The notes beneath the pieces were generated by a model, which ran no database searches, was not told the origin of the DNA, and was given only the letters and a program-made list of their open reading frames with translations. Shown here piece after piece: positions 3,959 to 35,788 of a DNA stretch of 64,000 nucleotides (positions are counted from its first letter, which is position 1; each line of letters begins with the position of its first letter). This stretch comes from Candidatus Sericytochromatia bacterium. Lineage in GTDB: Bacteria > Cyanobacteriota > Sericytochromatia > S15B-MN24 > VGJW01. Made by a program: the position numbers and the translations under genes. Location: positions 11,229 to 75,228 of the forward strand of contig JAYKHS010000027.1 of NCBI GenBank assembly GCA_035285865.1. The letters run 5' to 3'.

Positions 3959-6598
<2,640 letters not shown>

Positions 6599-28637: not shown

Positions 28638-29252
28638 TCAGCGCGGCTGCTGCAGCTTCTGCAGAATGACGGCCAGCACCTCGGGCGTGGCGTATTCGTT
28701 GATGGCAAACTGCCCGTTGGCGGCGCGGTAGGTCTGGTGGAGGTTGTTGTCCATCTTGAAGCGCTGGACGGCCACGCCGAGGGGCTCGTCATAGGCTCCG
28801 GCCGCAGAGACCTGATAACCGAGGCGACCAAGCGCGGCACGAAGCTGGACCACGGCGTCCTGGTTGCCGGTGCCGGGGCCAAGCGTTCCGTTTCCGGCAT
28901 AGGTCCCGACCTCGGCACGGAAGGCATCGAGGTTGGCCTTGGTCGGATGAAGCTGATACTGGGCGGCAAGGGCCCGATCCTGAGGCGTCAGCGTGGTGGC
29001 AGCGTCATCCACCGGCTGTCCGAAGAGACGCTTCACGAAGTTGACGATGCCCCGGAACATGTTGCCGGCGACTTCCATCGCCTTGGCGAAGAAGCCCTGC
29101 AACACGACCATCGTGCCTCCTGCCGCGGCAGGTGCCTGAGGGGCAGGCGTGGCCGGCACTGCGACCGGAGCGACAACGGGAGGAGTCGGCGCTCCACCGG
29201 CGGCAACCTGGGCACGGAAGACCATCGGACGATGCGAAACGGAAGCAATCAT
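28638..29252 (-). CDS. Protein with C-terminal peptidoglycan-binding-like domain and an internal amphipathic helix
   Basis: LGPGTGNQDAVVQLRAALGRLGY...GAYDEPLGVAVQRFK matches the PG_binding_1 pattern; Pro/Ala-rich N-terminus without a signal peptide. Confidence 0.7.
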   Translation of the reverse strand: MIASVSHRPMVFRAQVAAGGAPTPPVVAPVAVPATPAPQAPAAAGGTMVVLQGFFAKAMEVAGNMFRGIVNFVKRLFGQPVDDAATTLTPQDRALAAQYQLHPTKANLDAFRAEVGTYAGNGTLGPGTGNQDAVVQLRAALGRLGYQVSAAGAYDEPLGVAVQRFKMDNNLHQTYRAANGQFAINEYATPEVLAVILQKLQQPR

Positions 29253-29348
29253 CTCGGAACCTCGGCTGCTTGGGGGGCGACACCCCTTCCATCGCCGCCG
29301 GCCTCACCCTTTCGGTAAAGGAAGCCTCAAGGAGGGCTGAAGCCTGAA

Positions 29349-30242
29349 CTAAGTCTCGGAGTCGAGACGACGCGCGAACCAGAGGCGGTCGACCCTCCGC
29401 GAAGTCACCTCGGCAGGGTCGAAAAGGGCCTCGACACCACGCACGCCCGCAACCGTAAGGAAGCGCAGGCGCTCCCGGCCCGCCGCACGCGCAGCCAGCT
29501 TGAAACGGTCGAGCAACGCGCCGGAGAGGCCAGTGGGCCGATGACGCAGACGCACTGCAATCTCGTAGAGCAACACGGTCTCGTCATCCTCGGACATCCC
29601 GAGAATGGCCGCCACGGGCTCATCGCCATGCCAGGCAACCGCCCCCAGCGCAGCGCCGTCACGGGCGTCATGCAGGGCGTGAAGCAGCCGCCGGCAGCGA
29701 TCAGGTGTCGGCCAGTCGGGGAAAGTCAGGTAGGCGCCGTTCAGGCTGCCGATGTTGACGGACGAGAGCATCGCGCCGACCCGTGCGAAGGTCGCGGGCT
29801 CAAGCGGACGCAGGACATAACCCTCCGGGACAGGACGGGGGATGGGTGCGGCCTGCGCCAGGTCGTATTCGTGGGCGACCCGCTGGTAAGCCCTGTAGCC
29901 CGGCGGTACCGCCATGCGCTCGAAGACAGGAGTGCCCGGCAGGCCGAGGATCGCCTCCTCGGGCACGAGAACGGCCGAGATGCCAGGTTGCCGAATCAGC
30001 TCCGGCAACCACGGGAGGCTGGTGGGTACCTCGAGGGCGCGCACGACCAGCATCGGACCGTGCCGATCGATGAGTGCGGCGGCATCGTCTTCGAGCCAGA
30101 TGCAGCCCGGTGCATCCCCGAAGCGACGAACCCCCGCCTCCATCCAGCGTGAGCCAAGCGGCTGCCCCATGCGGGCCGCACCTGCCTGCAGCACGCGCAG
30201 CACCTCCGGCGCATCGAAGAGGCCGGCGGACCTGAGTGCCAC
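29349..30242 (-). CDS. GNAT-family N-acyltransferase
   Basis: C-terminal LLYEIAVRLRHRPTGLSGALL resembles acyl-CoA-binding motif A; PEGYVLRPL precedes the domain; GTG start 3 nt after the upstream stop. Confidence 0.65.
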   Translation of the reverse strand: MALRSAGLFDAPEVLRVLQAGAARMGQPLGSRWMEAGVRRFGDAPGCIWLEDDAAALIDRHGPMLVVRALEVPTSLPWLPELIRQPGISAVLVPEEAILGLPGTPVFERMAVPPGYRAYQRVAHEYDLAQAAPIPRPVPEGYVLRPLEPATFARVGAMLSSVNIGSLNGAYLTFPDWPTPDRCRRLLHALHDARDGAALGAVAWHGDEPVAAILGMSEDDETVLLYEIAVRLRHRPTGLSGALLDRFKLAARAAGRERLRFLTVAGVRGVEALFDPAEVTSRRVDRLWFARRLDSET

Positions 30243-30245
30243 GAG

Positions 30246-31598
30246 TCAGTCCGCCGGGGGCGGCTCGAAGCCGTAACGGAGGATACCGTCGCGCTGATCG
30301 GCGTCCGGAGGAAAGAGGCGAGCCAAGGCCGGAACCTCTGCCACCATCTTGTGCGCCCCGAGCACGGCCGAAACGCGCCCGTCGAGGCGGCTCCAGACCG
30401 GCATCGACAGAATCCGGGCCGCCTGACCGACCGAACCCGAAACCAGTTCCTGCAGCAGGACACGCGCGACATGAGCATCGGCCCGCGCCTCGAACAGCAG
30501 GTCGGCCAGCGCGCTGGCGCGAATGCGCGCCTCGGTGTCGGTTGCAAGGAGTGTGGCGAGGGCTTCCCGCTCCTTCGCCCGAAACGGATCCGAGACATCC
30601 GGTATCCACGCCAGATCGTCGAAGAGCGGCCCCTCTGACTCCGCTGGTGCCTCGTCTGCTTCCACTGCAGATTCGCCTTGGGATGAGTCGAGGACGTCCT
30701 GATCGGCCTCATTCACCACGTTCACGACAGCCGATGCAGCCTCGGAAGGCTGGCCGGCCAGTGGAGGCATCCCATCGAGTCCCCCCAGCCCTCCCAACCC
30801 GGAAAGCCCGGGCAATGGATCCCCCAGACCAGGCAGCCCACTGCCGATACCGCCCAGGCCCCCGAGGCCGCCAAGCCCGCCCAGGCTACCGCCACCATCC
30901 AAGGACAAGGACGATTGCCCCTTGGGCTGGACCGATACTCCCTGCGTCGAGGCACCCGAACCAACGATCCCGCTCACATGGGCTGCGGCCGAGGAGCGGC
31001 CGGACTCCGCGGCTGCCTTGGGCAAGGCAGCCTGCGTCACCCTCCATGTCACGTCGTCCTCATTGGGCTGGTAAGGCACGTCGAGGACCTCTGCCAGCAG
31101 ACGATGTACCACGGCGAGCTCCATGAGATGGAAGCGCAGTGATGCCAGATCGGCAACGGCATCCGCCTTGCGGTACGCCACCTTTTCCTGCGGATCATCC
31201 ACCTGAATGCCATCCGCAAAATTGGTCTCCAGCGTCCGCAGGTCTTCGGTCATGTCCGCGACGCGCAGCAAGGCCTTGGTCTTCAGGTTCAGCTTCAACT
31301 CGATGCCGAGGTCCATGTGATGATGCCAGCGGACCAGTTCGGGCTGAGATGCATCGAGTGGATACGCCTCCTTCATGGCCCGAAATGAGGCGATCTCCTG
31401 TTCAAGCGTCCCGATGAACGCGTTCTGGGCCCCCATGGACTCCACGACTTTTTTCATCACGACGGCCTTGCGTCCTTCGGCCTTCTTGATGAGGACCTGA
31501 AGGTCCTGCCGACGGGCCTCGATGTAGGCTTCCTGCTCGCTCTCGGGCAAAGCCGAGAACTCCTCGACGGACATCAGGTTGGGAATGAGTTCGTTCAT
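30246..31598 (-). CDS. Hypothetical protein: helical N-domain, Gly/Leu repeat linker, acidic spacer, helical C-domain
   Basis: 450-aa ORF from MNELIPNL; no family recognised. Confidence 0.75.
   Translation of the reverse strand: MNELIPNLMSVEEFSALPESEQEAYIEARRQDLQVLIKKAEGRKAVVMKKVVESMGAQNAFIGTLEQEIASFRAMKEAYPLDASQPELVRWHHHMDLGIELKLNLKTKALLRVADMTEDLRTLETNFADGIQVDDPQEKVAYRKADAVADLASLRFHLMELAVVHRLLAEVLDVPYQPNEDDVTWRVTQAALPKAAAESGRSSAAAHVSGIVGSGASTQGVSVQPKGQSSLSLDGGGSLGGLGGLGGLGGIGSGLPGLGDPLPGLSGLGGLGGLDGMPPLAGQPSEAASAVVNVVNEADQDVLDSSQGESAVEADEAPAESEGPLFDDLAWIPDVSDPFRAKEREALATLLATDTEARIRASALADLLFEARADAHVARVLLQELVSGSVGQAARILSMPVWSRLDGRVSAVLGAHKMVAEVPALARLFPPDADQRDGILRYGFEPPPAD
30770..30900 (-). 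repeat. Imperfect GGL/PGL tripeptide repeat within CDS (coordinates approximate)
   Basis: GGGSLGGLGGLGGLGGIGSGLPGLGDPLPGLSGLGGLGGLDG. Confidence 0.8.
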
Positions 31599-31745
31599 GA
31601 CCGAAGGGCCTGCATCAGTACAGCGACGTAGCGACAAGGGATGCATACCCGCGCAGGTGGACGGTGTTCACAACAGGCGAACCGTGGAAGGCGATGCAGA
31701 CGCCCCGCATGCGCAAATGACACGCCAGCCCCCAAAAGATGGAAG

Positions 31746-31775
31746 GGCGGGGCACGCGCCGGACGTGGCCCCGCC
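31746..31775 (-). terminator. Hairpin downstream of small paralog A
   Basis: GGCGGGGC...GCCCCGCC stem (31746-31753 / 31768-31775). Confidence 0.6.
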
Positions 31776-31786
31776 ACGATCCCGGA

Positions 31787-32044
31787 TCAAGCGAACTGCG
31801 GCAGGAACCCGCCTGGAGCCGGCGGCTGCTGAGCCGCGGCGTTACGGGCCTGATCCTGCCGGGCCGTCATCTCCTCGACCTTGGCCGACATCTGCGAGAA
31901 AGCATCGAAGGCCCCTCCCAGCTGCTGGAAGATGCCCCCGATCTGCTGCATCTCAGGCACGAACTTGCCAATGGCGTCGAAGATGCCGCCGAGGCCCTGC
32001 ATGCCCTGTGAAATGCCACCGATGATGTTTGCGACCCCACCCTT
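31787..32044 (-). CDS. Small amphipathic paralog A; AAG at the position of the start codon (possible pseudogene or non-canonical start)
   Basis: Reads (K)GGVANIIGGISQGMQGLGGIFDAIGKFVPEMQQIGGIFQQLGGAFDAFSQMSAK..., colinear with paralogs B-D; SD GGAGG intact. Confidence 0.8.
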   Translation of the reverse strand, partial: KGGVANIIGGISQGMQGLGGIFDAIGKFVPEMQQIGGIFQQLGGAFDAFSQMSAKVEEMTARQDQARNAAAQQPPAPGGFLPQFA

Positions 32045-32135
32045 GTCCGTTTCCCCCTCCTGGATGACCAGACGGCCCCCCGACCGCCTTCAGCCAAGTT
32101 TTTCTTGTCGCTCCTGAAGGACCCGGCACATCTAC

Positions 32136-32142
32136 AATTCAC
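32136..32142 (-). promoter_or_regulatory. Conserved upstream motif GTGAATT of paralog A
   Basis: About 92 nt upstream of the start position, equivalent to the motifs of B-D. Confidence 0.55.
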
Positions 32143-32202
32143 GAGTCCTTCATCCCTTGCCGCAGGGCACGCGGGGTCGTGGCCTCCGCCAAGGATGGCA
32201 AA

Positions 32203-32232
32203 GCGGGGGCGGTCCATCCGGACCACCCCCGC
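32203..32232 (-). terminator. Hairpin downstream of small paralog B
   Basis: Plus strand GCGGGGGCGGTCC-ATCC-GGACCACCCCCGC; followed by TTT on the minus strand. Confidence 0.65.
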
Positions 32233-32248
32233 CAAAGCCAAGACCCAA

Positions 32249-32512
32249 TCAGGCCGCAGCTGGCTGCTGCGCCGGCAAGGCAATCGGCGGCTTTGCGGCA
32301 ACCTGCGCGTTGTTCTGCTGGTCACGCTCCTGGTTCATGGCATCCAGCTTGGCGGACATCTGCGCGAAGGCATCGAAAGCCCCGCTGACCTGCTTGAACA
32401 TGTCTCCGACCTGCTTCAGCTGCGGCACGAACTGACCGATGGCGTCGAAGATGCCACCGATGGCCTGGAGGCCCTGCTGAATCCCGCTTACGACGTTGGC
32501 GATACCACCCAT
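32249..32512 (-). CDS. Small amphipathic paralog B (87 aa)
   Basis: MGGIANVVSGIQQGLQAIGGIFDAIGQFVPQLKQVGDMFKQVSGAFDAFAQMSAKLDAMNQERDQQ...; G-rich SD upstream. Confidence 0.88.
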   Translation of the reverse strand: MGGIANVVSGIQQGLQAIGGIFDAIGQFVPQLKQVGDMFKQVSGAFDAFAQMSAKLDAMNQERDQQNNAQVAAKPPIALPAQQPAAA

Positions 32513-32600
32513 TGTCCTGTCCCCCCTTGCTCTCCGGCGCGCCCCCCGGCTGCACCGACCACAAGACGTTCATCATCGATGTCGAGGTATCGGACGCCAG

Positions 32601-32607
32601 ATTTCAC
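32601..32607 (-). promoter_or_regulatory. Conserved upstream motif GTGAAAT of paralog B
   Basis: About 89 nt upstream of ATG 32512. Confidence 0.6.
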
Positions 32608-32820
32608 GATTCATTGACCCCGCGGAGACAGAGGCGAAAAGGTACGCCGGGGTGCCCCGATCAGACCGGGCATCCACGCGCTGTCGGCCAAGCCGCCACC
32701 GATGAGCGTCTCCTTGTCCCAGCGCGATCTCAAGGCTCTTCACAACCGCCCGCATCAGGATTAGGCCTGGCTTGGCGAACGCCCCCGTGCCAACGGGACC
32801 AGACCCCGAAACGTGCAAGA

Positions 32821-32850
32821 GGCGGGCAGTGTCCTCGGACACCACCCGCC
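32821..32850 (-). terminator. Hairpin downstream of small paralog C
   Basis: Plus strand GGCGGGCAGTGTCC-TC-GGACACCACCCGCC. Confidence 0.6.
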
Positions 32851-32888
32851 CACTGACTACCGACCGGGTTTACCCGCGTCGCCAGAAA

Positions 32889-33263
32889 CTACTTGCCCAA
32901 GGCCTTCAGAATGGCGGAGGGGTCGGTGTTGCCACCTTTGAGGAGGTCGAGAACACCATTGACCTTGCCACTGGCTTCCTGCACTTGCTGCAGGCTGGAA
33001 AAGCCAGATTCCGCGAGCGGATTCGGCTTGGCCGGCGCCGTTGCGGGCTTTGTCGCCGCACTGAGCGCCGCATCTTTACCGCCCTCCTCACTGGCCGCCT
33101 TTTCGCCCATCTTGGCCATCACGTCGAAGGCACTGCTGGCCTGCTTGAACATGTCGCCGATCTGCTTGAACTGCGGCACGAACTGGCCGATGGCCTCAAA
33201 GACACCACCAATGGCCTTGATGCCCTGCTGGATACCACTGATGAGATTGGCAGCTCCACCCAT
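32889..33263 (-). CDS. Small amphipathic paralog C (124 aa, extended C-terminus)
   Basis: MGGAANLISGIQQGIKAIGGVFEAIGQFVPQFKQIGDMFKQASSAFD...; SD GAGGAG. Confidence 0.88.
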   Translation of the reverse strand: MGGAANLISGIQQGIKAIGGVFEAIGQFVPQFKQIGDMFKQASSAFDVMAKMGEKAASEEGGKDAALSAATKPATAPAKPNPLAESGFSSLQQVQEASGKVNGVLDLLKGGNTDPSAILKALGK

Positions 33264-33347
33264 GTTCCGGCTCTCCTCTAATCTTCGGGTGCACCCTGGG
33301 CACCGCCTCTGGTTACTTGTTGCCCGACTTCTGCACCTTTTCGCTAA

Positions 33348-33354
33348 ATTTCAC
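33348..33354 (-). promoter_or_regulatory. Conserved upstream motif GTGAAAT of paralog C
   Basis: About 85 nt upstream of ATG 33263. Confidence 0.6.
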
Positions 33355-33409
33355 ATCCGGCTAATCAGCCATCACGAAAATCAGACACAAGGTCCACCCC
33401 AAAGTCCGA

Positions 33410-33435
33410 CGGGGGTGGCCCCCCGACCACCCCCG
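33410..33435 (-). terminator. Hairpin downstream of small paralog D
   Basis: CGGGGGTGG...CCACCCCCG stem; similar to the 3' region of paralog B. Confidence 0.6.
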
Positions 33436-33458
33436 CCAAGCCTTGCGAGCGAAACCAA

Positions 33459-33725
33459 TCAGGCCGCTGCCGCTTGCGGTGCAAGCGCTTGCGGCTGAGG
33501 CGGCCTGGCAGCCACCTGGGCGTTATTCTGCTGATCCCGCTCCTGGTTCATCGCGTCCAGCTTCGCGGACATCTGAGCGAAGGCATCGAAAGCCCCGCTG
33601 GCCTGCTTGAACATGTCGCCGACCTGCTTGAGCTGCGGCACGAACTGGCCGATGGCGTCGAGCACGCCACCGATGGCCTGAAGGCCCTGCTGAATGCCGC
33701 TGACGACGTTTGCAATACCACCCAT
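33459..33725 (-). CDS. Small amphipathic paralog D (88 aa)
   Basis: 70 of the first 73 aa identical to paralog B (hand count); start set at MGGIANVV by homology. Confidence 0.88.
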   Translation of the reverse strand: MGGIANVVSGIQQGLQAIGGVLDAIGQFVPQLKQVGDMFKQASGAFDAFAQMSAKLDAMNQERDQQNNAQVAARPPQPQALAPQAAAA

Positions 33726-33817: not shown

Positions 33818-33824
33818 ATTTCAC
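33818..33824 (-). promoter_or_regulatory. Conserved upstream motif GTGAAAT of paralog D
   Basis: About 93 nt upstream of ATG 33725. Confidence 0.6.
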
Positions 33825-33850
33825 ATCGTCTTCATCCTGCTGCAGGAGAG

Positions 33851-35632
33851 TCAGGACAAGGGTGCCGGGTCGGCCAACCGACGTGCCAGCTCCTCCTCTG
33901 CCAGATTCGCGAAGTCCTTGAGCAATCGGACGTCCTCATCCGAAAACCTCCGGGGCTGGACGTGCATCAGGCAGAGGGTGCCGACCGCCCAGCCATCCGC
34001 ATCCCTGAGCGGCACGCCAGCATAGAAGCGAAGGCGCCTTTCGGTGTAGGCAGGATTGTCGCCATGCTGAGGATCCGCAGCCAAATCCTCGATGATCAGG
34101 GGATCCTCGCGCAAGATGGCGTGGGCACAGAGCGAGACGTCCCGAGCACACTCGGATGCCAGGTATGCCGAGGGCGTCTTGAACCACTGGCGATCCGAAT
34201 CGATCAGGCTCACGACGGCCACCGGGACGCCGAAGGCACGGCGCACGAGGCGTGTCAGCCTCTCGAAGCGCTCGTCGGCCGGCGTGTCGAGCAAGCCCAG
34301 CGCAGCCACGCCCTTCAAGCGCAGAACCTCCTGGTCCGGCAAAGGTGCTCGCGTCCAGCGAGGCTGCCGATGCATCATCCAGGCCTCGACGCGCGCACGC
34401 AGGTATTGCGTCGAGCAAGGCCACGTCACGACATCCAGCACGTGGTCACGATCCGTCTGCGTCAACCAGGCACGCTCCTGAGCCTCGGGAAGGATCACGA
34501 CACCCGGATGACCGGTCACGACGGGCCAGGCCGAAGGCGACACAATCCAGACAGCCCCGGCGTCAATCGTGCCGGACGGGACCGGAGCTTCACGACAGAT
34601 GATGCCGCATTGCCCGAGGACCGCCGCGACGACACTGCGTATCTCCGGCTCATCGACGGCGAGCACGACCTCCGGGGGGTGGGTCGGGGAAGACAAGCGC
34701 GAGCGGAGAACACGTCGAACCTCGACCGAAGGTGCTTCCGGTGCCTCCCCGGTCCGCTCGACCACGAGAGTGGCTCCCTCCGCTGCAGCCACGATCTCGC
34801 AGGTGGAACCCGACTGACGGGCCAGGTCCCTCGCGCGCCCCAACAGCGCGTCCACGCCGTCATCGGAGCGCATCGGGTCATGGTGGAACAGAGCCAGCTT
34901 ACCGACACCTGCGGCGACGGCCACATCCACGACGTACTCGACGGTACTGTGCCCCCAGCCCGCACGCCCTCCATACTCCTCCGCCAGGTACTGCGCATCG
35001 TGGATCAGCAAATCTGCTCCAGCCACGAAGGCCACGTGCCTCCGGTCTCCCGGGTGCACGAATCCGGCGGGCGATTCCGCAGGGACCGCCGTCGCATGCG
35101 CATGCGGCTCGTGATCCGTCGCGTAGACCAGCGAGGCGCCGCGACACTCGAGCCGGTAGGCCAGGGTCGCCGCGGGATGGTTGAGACTCATGGTCGACAC
35201 GGAAACATCATCGATGGTCAGTCGTTCCTCCCGAAGCTCGTGGAAGCGGATGCGAGAGCCGAGTTGGTCAAGGCTCACGGGAAAGTAGGCATATTCCATC
35301 TGGCCGGCGAGTACATCACGCAGTTCCTGGCCAAACCCGGCGGGCGCATAGACGTCCCAGGAGTTTCCATTCGCGAAAAGCGGAGCAAAGAAAGGAATCC
35401 CCTGGATGTGGTCCCAGTGCGTGTGTCCAATAAGGAGATGGCCCCTGATCGGGCCTTTTTGCTGAGCCAGCAAATGTTGACCAAGGCCGTGGAGACCCGT
35501 TCCGGCGTCCAGAATCAGCAAGGTTCCACCGTCGCTCATAACCTGCACGCAGGAGGTGTTGCCTCCGTAGCGAATGGTGGCAGCCCCCGGCTTGGCGATG
35601 GAGCCACGGGTGCCCCAGAACGTCACTTCCAA
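33851..35632 (-). CDS. MBL-fold metallo-hydrolase fused to a degenerate receiver-like region and a C-terminal GAF domain
   Basis: VTFWGTRGS, YGGNTSCV, LDAGTG, HTHWDHIQG, YATDHE, WGHST, FHHDP; GLLDTPADERFERLTRL...SLIDSDRQWFK...LRFYAGVPL. TTG start after AGGAG. Confidence 0.88.
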   Translation of the reverse strand: MEVTFWGTRGSIAKPGAATIRYGGNTSCVQVMSDGGTLLILDAGTGLHGLGQHLLAQQKGPIRGHLLIGHTHWDHIQGIPFFAPLFANGNSWDVYAPAGFGQELRDVLAGQMEYAYFPVSLDQLGSRIRFHELREERLTIDDVSVSTMSLNHPAATLAYRLECRGASLVYATDHEPHAHATAVPAESPAGFVHPGDRRHVAFVAGADLLIHDAQYLAEEYGGRAGWGHSTVEYVVDVAVAAGVGKLALFHHDPMRSDDGVDALLGRARDLARQSGSTCEIVAAAEGATLVVERTGEAPEAPSVEVRRVLRSRLSSPTHPPEVVLAVDEPEIRSVVAAVLGQCGIICREAPVPSGTIDAGAVWIVSPSAWPVVTGHPGVVILPEAQERAWLTQTDRDHVLDVVTWPCSTQYLRARVEAWMMHRQPRWTRAPLPDQEVLRLKGVAALGLLDTPADERFERLTRLVRRAFGVPVAVVSLIDSDRQWFKTPSAYLASECARDVSLCAHAILREDPLIIEDLAADPQHGDNPAYTERRLRFYAGVPLRDADGWAVGTLCLMHVQPRRFSDEDVRLLKDFANLAEEELARRLADPAPLS

Positions 35633-35788
35633 CTTGTCTCTCCTGCGTCGCCCACGGGTACCTTCCCAAGCTGCCGAGTCCATGCGCGGCGGTCAGCTGG
35701 CCCAGACCTGCAGGCATCATGCCACGTGCAGGCGCAAGGCTCTGTCACCCGAAAACCTGGCAAGGCACTCACCCCTGTACGGTCTGAC

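Follow-up and report, generated by a model that had tools for sequence, protein, structure and literature searches.

Phenol-soluble modulins (PSMs) and leaderless bacteriocins are peptides of 20-55 amino acids (aa) with a dedicated ABC exporter nearby. In type III secretion, translocators pair with class II chaperones, and class I chaperones are acidic with a pI of 4-5, according to a published source (PMC13466201). Myxococcus has a needleless apparatus, T3SS*, that works with Tad (Kil) pili in contact predation (PMC12075869). Here we analyzed a stretch of 64,000 nucleotides (hereafter the window) from the genome of a Candidatus Sericytochromatia bacterium of the Cyanobacteriota (assembly GCA_035285865.1, contig JAYKHS010000027.1), in which four tandem genes for small amphipathic proteins (S) are followed by a gene for a large helical protein (P) and a gene for a tandem-GNAT acyltransferase (N). 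An earlier note on this DNA, made from the letters alone, had drawn attention to the four S genes. These genes are real, but the note had missed P and N, which bear most of the mechanistic information, and the conserved unit is wider than the array in that it takes in these two downstream genes.

A Three-Gene Cassette Conserved across One Order

All genes of the locus lie on the minus strand. The four co-oriented S paralogues were found at the coordinates previously reported: S gene 1 (33459..33725; 88 aa, with an MGG start), S gene 2 (32889..33263; 124 aa, a long-tailed type with an extra C-terminal amphipathic stretch), S gene 3 (32249..32512; 87 aa, a near copy of S gene 1), and S gene 4 (31787..32044; 85 codons, of which the first is AAG). 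They have in common a gap-free core of about 55 residues with an invariant FVP, as had been noted, whereas the shared MGG start holds for genes 1-3 and not for gene 4. P (30246..31598) encodes an acidic (pI 4.7), helical protein of 450 aa with two conserved halves around a low-complexity insert, and N (29349..30242; 297 aa) begins 3 bp after P.

The conserved unit is the three-gene cassette of S, then P, then N, and it extends across one order of Sericytochromatia. N was present in 18 of 47 genomes of the class, always directly after P, and in these 18 genomes S precedes P (a contig end cuts two). Among the S-linked P loci read outside the genus, an intact small gene lies directly upstream in 22 of 23, and the 23rd ends at a contig edge. 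One genus carries a doubled unit, S-P-S-P-N, which fits one P per S type. Within the family, the cassette occupies one chromosomal site. In seven genomes of one family, P-family genes were present and S and N were not found with these queries; the genome G006 is 64% complete. Because related genomes are not independent, the counts document inheritance of the unit and are no statistical test. We found no description of the cassette in the literature on Sericytochromatia, Tanganyikabacteria, and the mechanism, with subscription papers and preprint supplements outside reach, and the accessible part of the Tanganyikabacteria paper (10.1101/834861) makes no mention of secretion or flagella.

Our preferred reading, to which we give a probability of about 0.4, is that the S proteins are leaderless membrane-inserting subunits that are chaperoned by P, N-acylated by N, and exported by a second type III apparatus. 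S would be produced in large excess, P would keep it soluble as a dedicated chaperone, and N would acylate its first glycine. S would then leave the cell without a signal peptide through the second, flagellum-derived type III apparatus, and its glycine-rich amphipathic hairpin would enter the target membrane as a pore or a translocon-like layer.

Structure and Assembly of the S Array

For S gene 4, the first in-frame ATG (at 32002) would give a protein of 71 aa without the MGG head. Its orthologue starts with ATG in two congeners, its coding core shows dN/dS values of 0.04-0.07, and the AAG recurs when the likely source run is assembled independently, with 0 differences over positions 29300-32372; the AAG is therefore most likely a recent loss of the start codon. 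A scan of other metagenomes for start variants of this gene gave 61 pattern matches, 0 of them encoding S.

The array is covered, with its gene order unchanged, by tiled contigs from the likely source run and from a second study, and two congeners carry the same array, so misassembly, which the earlier note had named as a risk, is unlikely. No further S copies were detected in the genome by tblastn. The third S copy is decayed in the genome G001 and a fifth copy is present in G003, indicating that the array is turning over. The tandem array is a genus-level amplification; in other genera, the S genes number one to three, stand apart, and are each paired with a P of their own.

The S Protein Family

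All four S proteins of the window lack Cys, Trp, Tyr, and His, as previously observed, and the same is true of only 10 of 223 predicted proteins of 70-130 aa in the genome. The amphipathic helical hairpin that had been suggested was borne out: both helical halves, on either side of FVP, were more amphipathic than shuffled sequences (p 0 to 0.011, 1000 shuffles each). None of the S proteins has a signal peptide. The family is conserved in its N-terminal half only, and the 19-residue hydropathy rises to 1.76-1.96 in 6 of 30 members. Purifying selection acts on all four window genes (dN/dS 0.04-0.44); against two congeners, the values were 0.07 and 0.10 for S gene 1 and 0.22 and 0.44 for S gene 2.

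The family had been described as unrecognized and it stayed so, since none of the 30 members matched a Pfam or NCBIfam family over the cut-off. Sequence searches of solved structures gave nothing meaningful for S or P, and the ESM Atlas gave only S matches under 0.9 and no usable match for P. Searches with single S sequences gave matches confined to this genus (4 of 41 genomes), and a profile search of 1.84 billion proteins gave nine matches, five of them genus members and one a true remote member (P0017), named Ca. Tanganyikabacteria; the other three were long, unrelated proteins and were dropped. S proteins of other genera are 13-28% identical to S gene 3. When an HMM was built from 18 S genes of other genera, the window genes took the top four places among 2530 proteins (E 2.8e-4 to 1.6e-3; 0.057 for the fifth), so that by sequence comparison the homology of S across genera is not merely positional. 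S profile matches occurred in 17 of 47 class genomes, all within one order. Outside the genus, 21 of 22 S genes have the MGG start, compared with 12 of 2530 predicted proteins of the genome.

Two unusual forms stood out in this family. Two S variants in G016 (L098:4676-4864 and L096 ~5090-5365) have Cys-rich tails unlike all other members, one with 7 Cys in 63 aa. The protein L186 (G008:C175) is longer than 700 aa; its peptidase-like region precedes an S-like amphipathic run and hydrophobic segments, and it has a weak SseC match (E 0.035); it may possibly be a self-translocating effector.

Being amphipathic, leaderless, and multi-copy, the S proteins could also be membrane-active toxins similar to PSMs or leaderless bacteriocins that are released by another route, with N providing self-protection by acetylation and P acting as immunity protein or antidote. 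The cognate pairing of S and P also suits a toxin-immunity logic, and PamZ, a self-resistance acetyltransferase, is among the fold matches of N (E 4e-8). However, S has a neutral to acidic character, with net charges from -1 to +1 in the window, and is 63-156 aa long, and no ABC exporter lies beside the cassette in the loci read. The vertical, order-wide conservation at one chromosomal site within the family is unlike that of patchy toxin loci, and a P clade linked to needle-like genes (see below) is left unexplained. We therefore regard toxins as unlikely, and the stand-alone PSM-like peptide of the earlier note fits worse than a chaperoned subunit.

Upstream Boxes, Hairpins, and Expression

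Each S gene has its own upstream box and downstream hairpin, in agreement with the previous proposal of separate expression units. The direct-repeat box TGAA-N7-TGAAAT lies at 33818..33834, 98 bp before S gene 1 (rank 1 of 1339), and the corresponding boxes lie at 33348..33364 before S gene 2 (rank 0 of 1339), at 32601..32617 before S gene 3 (rank 6 of 1339), and at 32136..32152 before S gene 4 (rank 17 of 1339), all on the minus strand; ranks are counted from 0 and are helped by shared ancestry within the genus. A TNAA-N7-TGAAAT repeat, with some mismatches, was found 90-100 bp upstream of all 12 of the 12 genus S copies examined. A matrix derived from 11 S promoters of other genomes gave 29 sites at a score of at least 12, compared with 3 in shuffles. 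The 11 bp period of the box resembles that of OmpR/CtrA-type boxes. The 19 box-sharing genes scanned encode two LysM-lytic transglycosylases, two peptidases, three EF-hand proteins, one OmpA-like protein, one DUF5995 protein, and 10 proteins of no family.

G+C-rich hairpins, which may act as terminators or mRNA stabilizers, follow S gene 1 (33408..33437), S gene 2 (32820..32851), and S gene 3 (32202..32233) on the minus strand, and a downstream hairpin was seen at each S gene, with short U runs only. The codon use of S genes 1 and 3 is among the 4% most similar to that of ribosomal and flagellin genes, consistent with the high dosage envisaged earlier, whereas that of P is in the lower third (short genes make these values noisy). 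Given this gap in codon use and the strong hairpins between S and P, production of S likely far exceeds that of P. In one metatranscriptome, contigs fell on S gene 1 (33543-33712) and S gene 2 (32934-33084) with 0 differences each, on S gene 3 with 14 differences, and on three other genes within 20 kb. As the contigs of one run cannot show expression level, they give a weak hint that S genes 1-3 are transcribed.

Other sequence signals were seen alongside. A T-x-[PRK]-L motif, devised after seeing the data and so no more than a lead, is enriched at the N-termini of box-sharing genes (5 of 30, compared with 46 of 1305), and a T-G/Q-P/R-L motif recurs at floppy ends, both in several P proteins and in many leaderless hypothetical proteins; the latter motif, also spotted after the fact, is possibly an export or docking signal. 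A promoter type GCAAG-N17-GATAA has about 55 sites above shuffles, before many lipoproteins, a Flp pilin, and a SigF-like sigma gene (C31:2504).

Partner P

P-family genes were detected throughout the order (27 of 27 genomes) and in none of the 20 genomes of other orders in the class. Outside the order, none was found in a 301-genome sample of the phylum, with seven candidates scored per genome, and a metagenome scan with one P protein gave no match. The proteins are 278-450 aa long, and 31 of the 36 S-linked P proteins aligned have a pI <6 (median 5.1), compared with 39% of same-sized proteins.

No Pfam or NCBIfam family, TPR included, matched P over the cut-off. The model of a compact P orthologue is all helix (pLDDT 88.5), with a long N-terminal hairpin and a helical C-terminal part, and its helices of 63, 39, and 31 residues are not 34-residue repeats. 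Foldseek gave no PDB match (none with E under 0.001), VIA-align gave none that was clear, and the viral library gave none, the C-terminal half being barely covered. The top structural neighbors are BAR, I-BAR, and ESCRT-III-type hairpins, with Z values of 8-10.5 over residues 8-160 only; the best has Z 10.5 and an rmsd of 3.6 over 144 residues, against a helical-bundle background of under ~13.

These neighbors would suit a cassette that stays inside the cell, in which S coats an internal lipid surface (a storage granule, a vesicle, or the inner membrane) through an N-derived acyl anchor and P is a BAR- or PspA-like scaffold. The helix period of S, near 100-104 degrees, with its strong hydrophobic moment, agrees with such a coat, as does the high dosage. 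On the other hand, the Z values are inside the helical-bundle background, and both an S-LysM fusion, described below, and the box shared with cell-wall enzymes point outward, which makes an internal coat rather unlikely.

In the P tree, a well-supported sister clade has members in G008, G009, G011, and G019 that follow another helical gene, of 68-81 aa, which is doubled in G019. The top Pfam match of these small proteins was the type III needle subunit (PF09392) in three of five, with a best E of 1.1e-4, under the cut-off. The P family thus lies repeatedly behind small, often amplified helical genes, as would be expected of a dedicated chaperone family; P is likely a dedicated chaperone that would bind S. 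Needle-subunit-like genes of 68-85 aa were seen at G000:C5:36207-36452 (L160; G000 is the genome of the window), L104:4462-4704, L113, and L069:4933-5136, often in multiple copies. The codon use of the G000 gene is at the 99.6th percentile, and the second FliH/FliI are 6-8 kb away. This genome has two further P-family genes (G000:C23:4750-5634 and C31:4392-5138), neither preceded by a small gene, and paralogues of the C-terminal half of P adjoin the second FlhB in G015 and G017.

Partner N

N matched Pfam Acetyltransf_1 over the cut-off, and its model matches tandem GNATs, although the first 74 residues are unreliable. The acetyl-CoA binding motif (motif A) is intact in the C-terminal domain. 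With a profile of N, the best sequence matches among solved structures were RimI-type N-terminal acetyltransferases (E 2e-7), over the generic core only. That the invariant glycine start of S adjoins a RimI-like enzyme suggests that N may acylate the first glycine of S after removal of the Met.

Plant hosts myristoylate injected pathogen effectors that start with Met-Gly, and the MGG start might likewise be a signal for a eukaryotic host N-myristoyltransferase after injection into algae or protists, with N having another substrate. The retention of MGG in S-P pairs that lack N would be in keeping with this. However, host N-myristoyltransferase prefers a small residue at position 6, where S often has Lys or Asp. 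S and N, moreover, co-occur closely, and no host is known. Host myristoylation of S is thus quite improbable.

A second N paralogue in G005 follows a different MGG protein of 219 aa, without P. Just behind N in the window lies a gene (28638-29252) for a leaderless protein of 204 aa with a peptidoglycan-binding domain; it is also in the RNA run, and in the family f1 it remains a few kb or less from the cassette. On the other side of the array, a metallo-beta-lactamase-GAF gene (33851-35683) and the genes up to ~38000 are absent at this place in G001 and G003, and the region from 33851 to ~38000 is a local insertion.

A Second Type III Apparatus as a Proposed Export Route

The genome encodes a flagellum and, in addition, a complete second set of FlhA, FlhB, FliPQR, FliI, FliJ, FliK, FliF, rod, hook, and L/P ring genes with its own sigma-28. 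This flagellum-derived type III export set is located at G000 C26:109532-121515, C22:4145-10739, C5:42817-45548, C28:60040-61317, and C30:49698-51061, a listing that leaves out a FliF-FliG fusion on contig C6. The branch of the second FlhA is long in this order. A search of the genome for export-set genes brought up no second FlgK or FlgL, which points to a second hook without a flagellin-type junction. Stand-alone paralogues of the FHIPEP cytoplasmic domain are many in the order and class (genomes G010-G025; up to nine matches per genome).

LysM is a cell-wall binder and would be useless in the cytoplasm. The fifth S copy, in G003, has an S head (E 7e-4, above 500 shuffles) joined to a LysM-like domain (19.2 bits, cut-off 20.9), and the closest match of the latter part in the genome of the window is a leaderless LysM-like protein (E 1e-18). 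As judged from these sequences, the S-LysM fusion and the second type III set indirectly support non-Sec secretion of S, one of the roles suggested in the earlier note. In G020, FliH/FliI-like genes, recognized by their likeness to G000 genes, follow one S-P pair at a distance of ~1 kb.

A hook of this kind could also carry a surface filament or sheath of polymerized S, similar to Hrp pilin or EspA, in which P would serve as chaperone or cap and N would modify the filament. An amplified, strongly expressed subunit with one P would fit such a filament, the variable S tails could be surface-exposed, and HrpA pilin matches were obtained in 2 of 30 members, both remote (best E 0.008). However, the HrpA matches are far under the cut-off, S has no similarity to the needle-like family, and needle subunits retain their C-terminal helix, whereas S is conserved in its N-terminal half only. 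A filament is accordingly improbable.

For export of chaperoned, acylated S through the second apparatus, several observations weigh on the other side. The second export system is class-wide, while S and P were found in one order only, and a co-distribution of P with the second FlhA was rejected for this reason. The cassette is unlinked to the second export set in this genome, and two regulatory links were looked for and not found: the S genes rank 427-1027 of 1433 for the sigma-28-like promoter of the GCAAG-N17-GATAA type, and for the S box, leaders of the second export system have ranks of 163-700 of 1339. Neither the LysM match nor the needle match reaches its cut-off. S and the needle-like family share no profile similarity (probability 0.2%), so the two partners of P are connected through P alone, and P, roughly double known class I chaperones in size, has no chaperone fold match. 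The S proteins of the window have no segment of transmembrane strength, their 19-residue hydropathy peaking at 1.0-1.1. The fold of N resembles tandem GNATs of many functions and not N-myristoyltransferase. One S starts with MFG beside an intact N, one remote S homologue starts with MAG, six S-P pairs have no adjacent N, and G020 (93% complete, ~730 contigs) has three S-P pairs but no N was found in it; the MFG start and the N-less pairs weigh against a strict requirement.

A more far-reaching version, which we put forward as speculative, is that a duplicated flagellum became an injectisome of its own, independent of the known ones. Rod and hook would be kept, the structure would end in a needle-like filament, and self-acylated MGG hairpins would open prey or host membranes. 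A single new family of long-helix chaperones would deliver both small subunits, and the array would be a translocon gene in four copies.

With these analyses, four orphan genes become part of a defined system of three genes that spans an order and includes two new protein families and a candidate enzyme-substrate pair. If N acylates S, the cassette would be a bacterial one that lipidates or caps its own exported subunit at the N-terminal glycine. If export of S runs through the second type III apparatus, the cassette would yield the first candidates for substrates, chaperones, and membrane-opening parts of an uncharacterized flagellum-derived machine, and a handle on the feeding of an uncultured, non-photosynthetic sister group of cyanobacteria. 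Since the S, P, and N genes are short, work in E. coli is possible without culturing the organism.

Comparison with Known Systems

Compared with beta-type PSMs and multi-peptide leaderless bacteriocins, S has in common tandem genes for leaderless amphipathic helices at high dosage. S, however, is longer, neutral, and extended by tails or a LysM-like domain, and its companions are a large partner and a GNAT instead of an ABC exporter. The 30 S members gave no match to a PSM or bacteriocin family, and the loci read contained no exporter. N shares a two-domain GNAT fold, a length of ~300 aa, and the acetyl-CoA motif with the tandem GNATs MAB_4324, VipF, and PamZ and with RimI, but is at most 21% identical to solved GNAT chains and has a fixed place behind S and P.

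A further likeness is to a type III translocator or filament subunit with its adjacent chaperone, such as EspA/EspB-CesAB (PMC13466201): S lies beside an acidic helical P in a genome with an export set that is not of the motility type. The likeness extends to the sister P clade after needle-like genes. In contrast to such pairs, S is only 63-156 aa long and has no family match, P is neither a TPR protein nor of the class I fold, the unit includes an acyltransferase, and the export set is flagellum-like (rod, hook, and L/P ring genes) and unlinked. The pI of P agrees with the acidity of class I chaperones, whereas its 278-450 aa exceed their 15-20 kDa, and it does not match the adjacent TPR (class II) chaperone of translocators. 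Against translocator profiles, no S member scored over the cut-off; SseD appeared in 2 of 30 (best E 0.015), and SseC was absent among the 25 of 31 Pfam families shown. S falls outside HrpA and PF09392, and no protein of the genome reaches the PF09392 cut-off. By analogy, S and P would work like a translocator-chaperone pair, yet they do not belong to that class, lacking a profile match, the right sizes, and a TPR chaperone.

The Myxococcus T3SS* shares with the present case an atypical type III apparatus and Flp/Tad pilins in a bacterium that likely attacks cell walls. The Myxococcus apparatus has neither needle nor translocon, whereas Sericytochromatia, at most putative predators, have candidates for both a needle-like and a translocon-like part.

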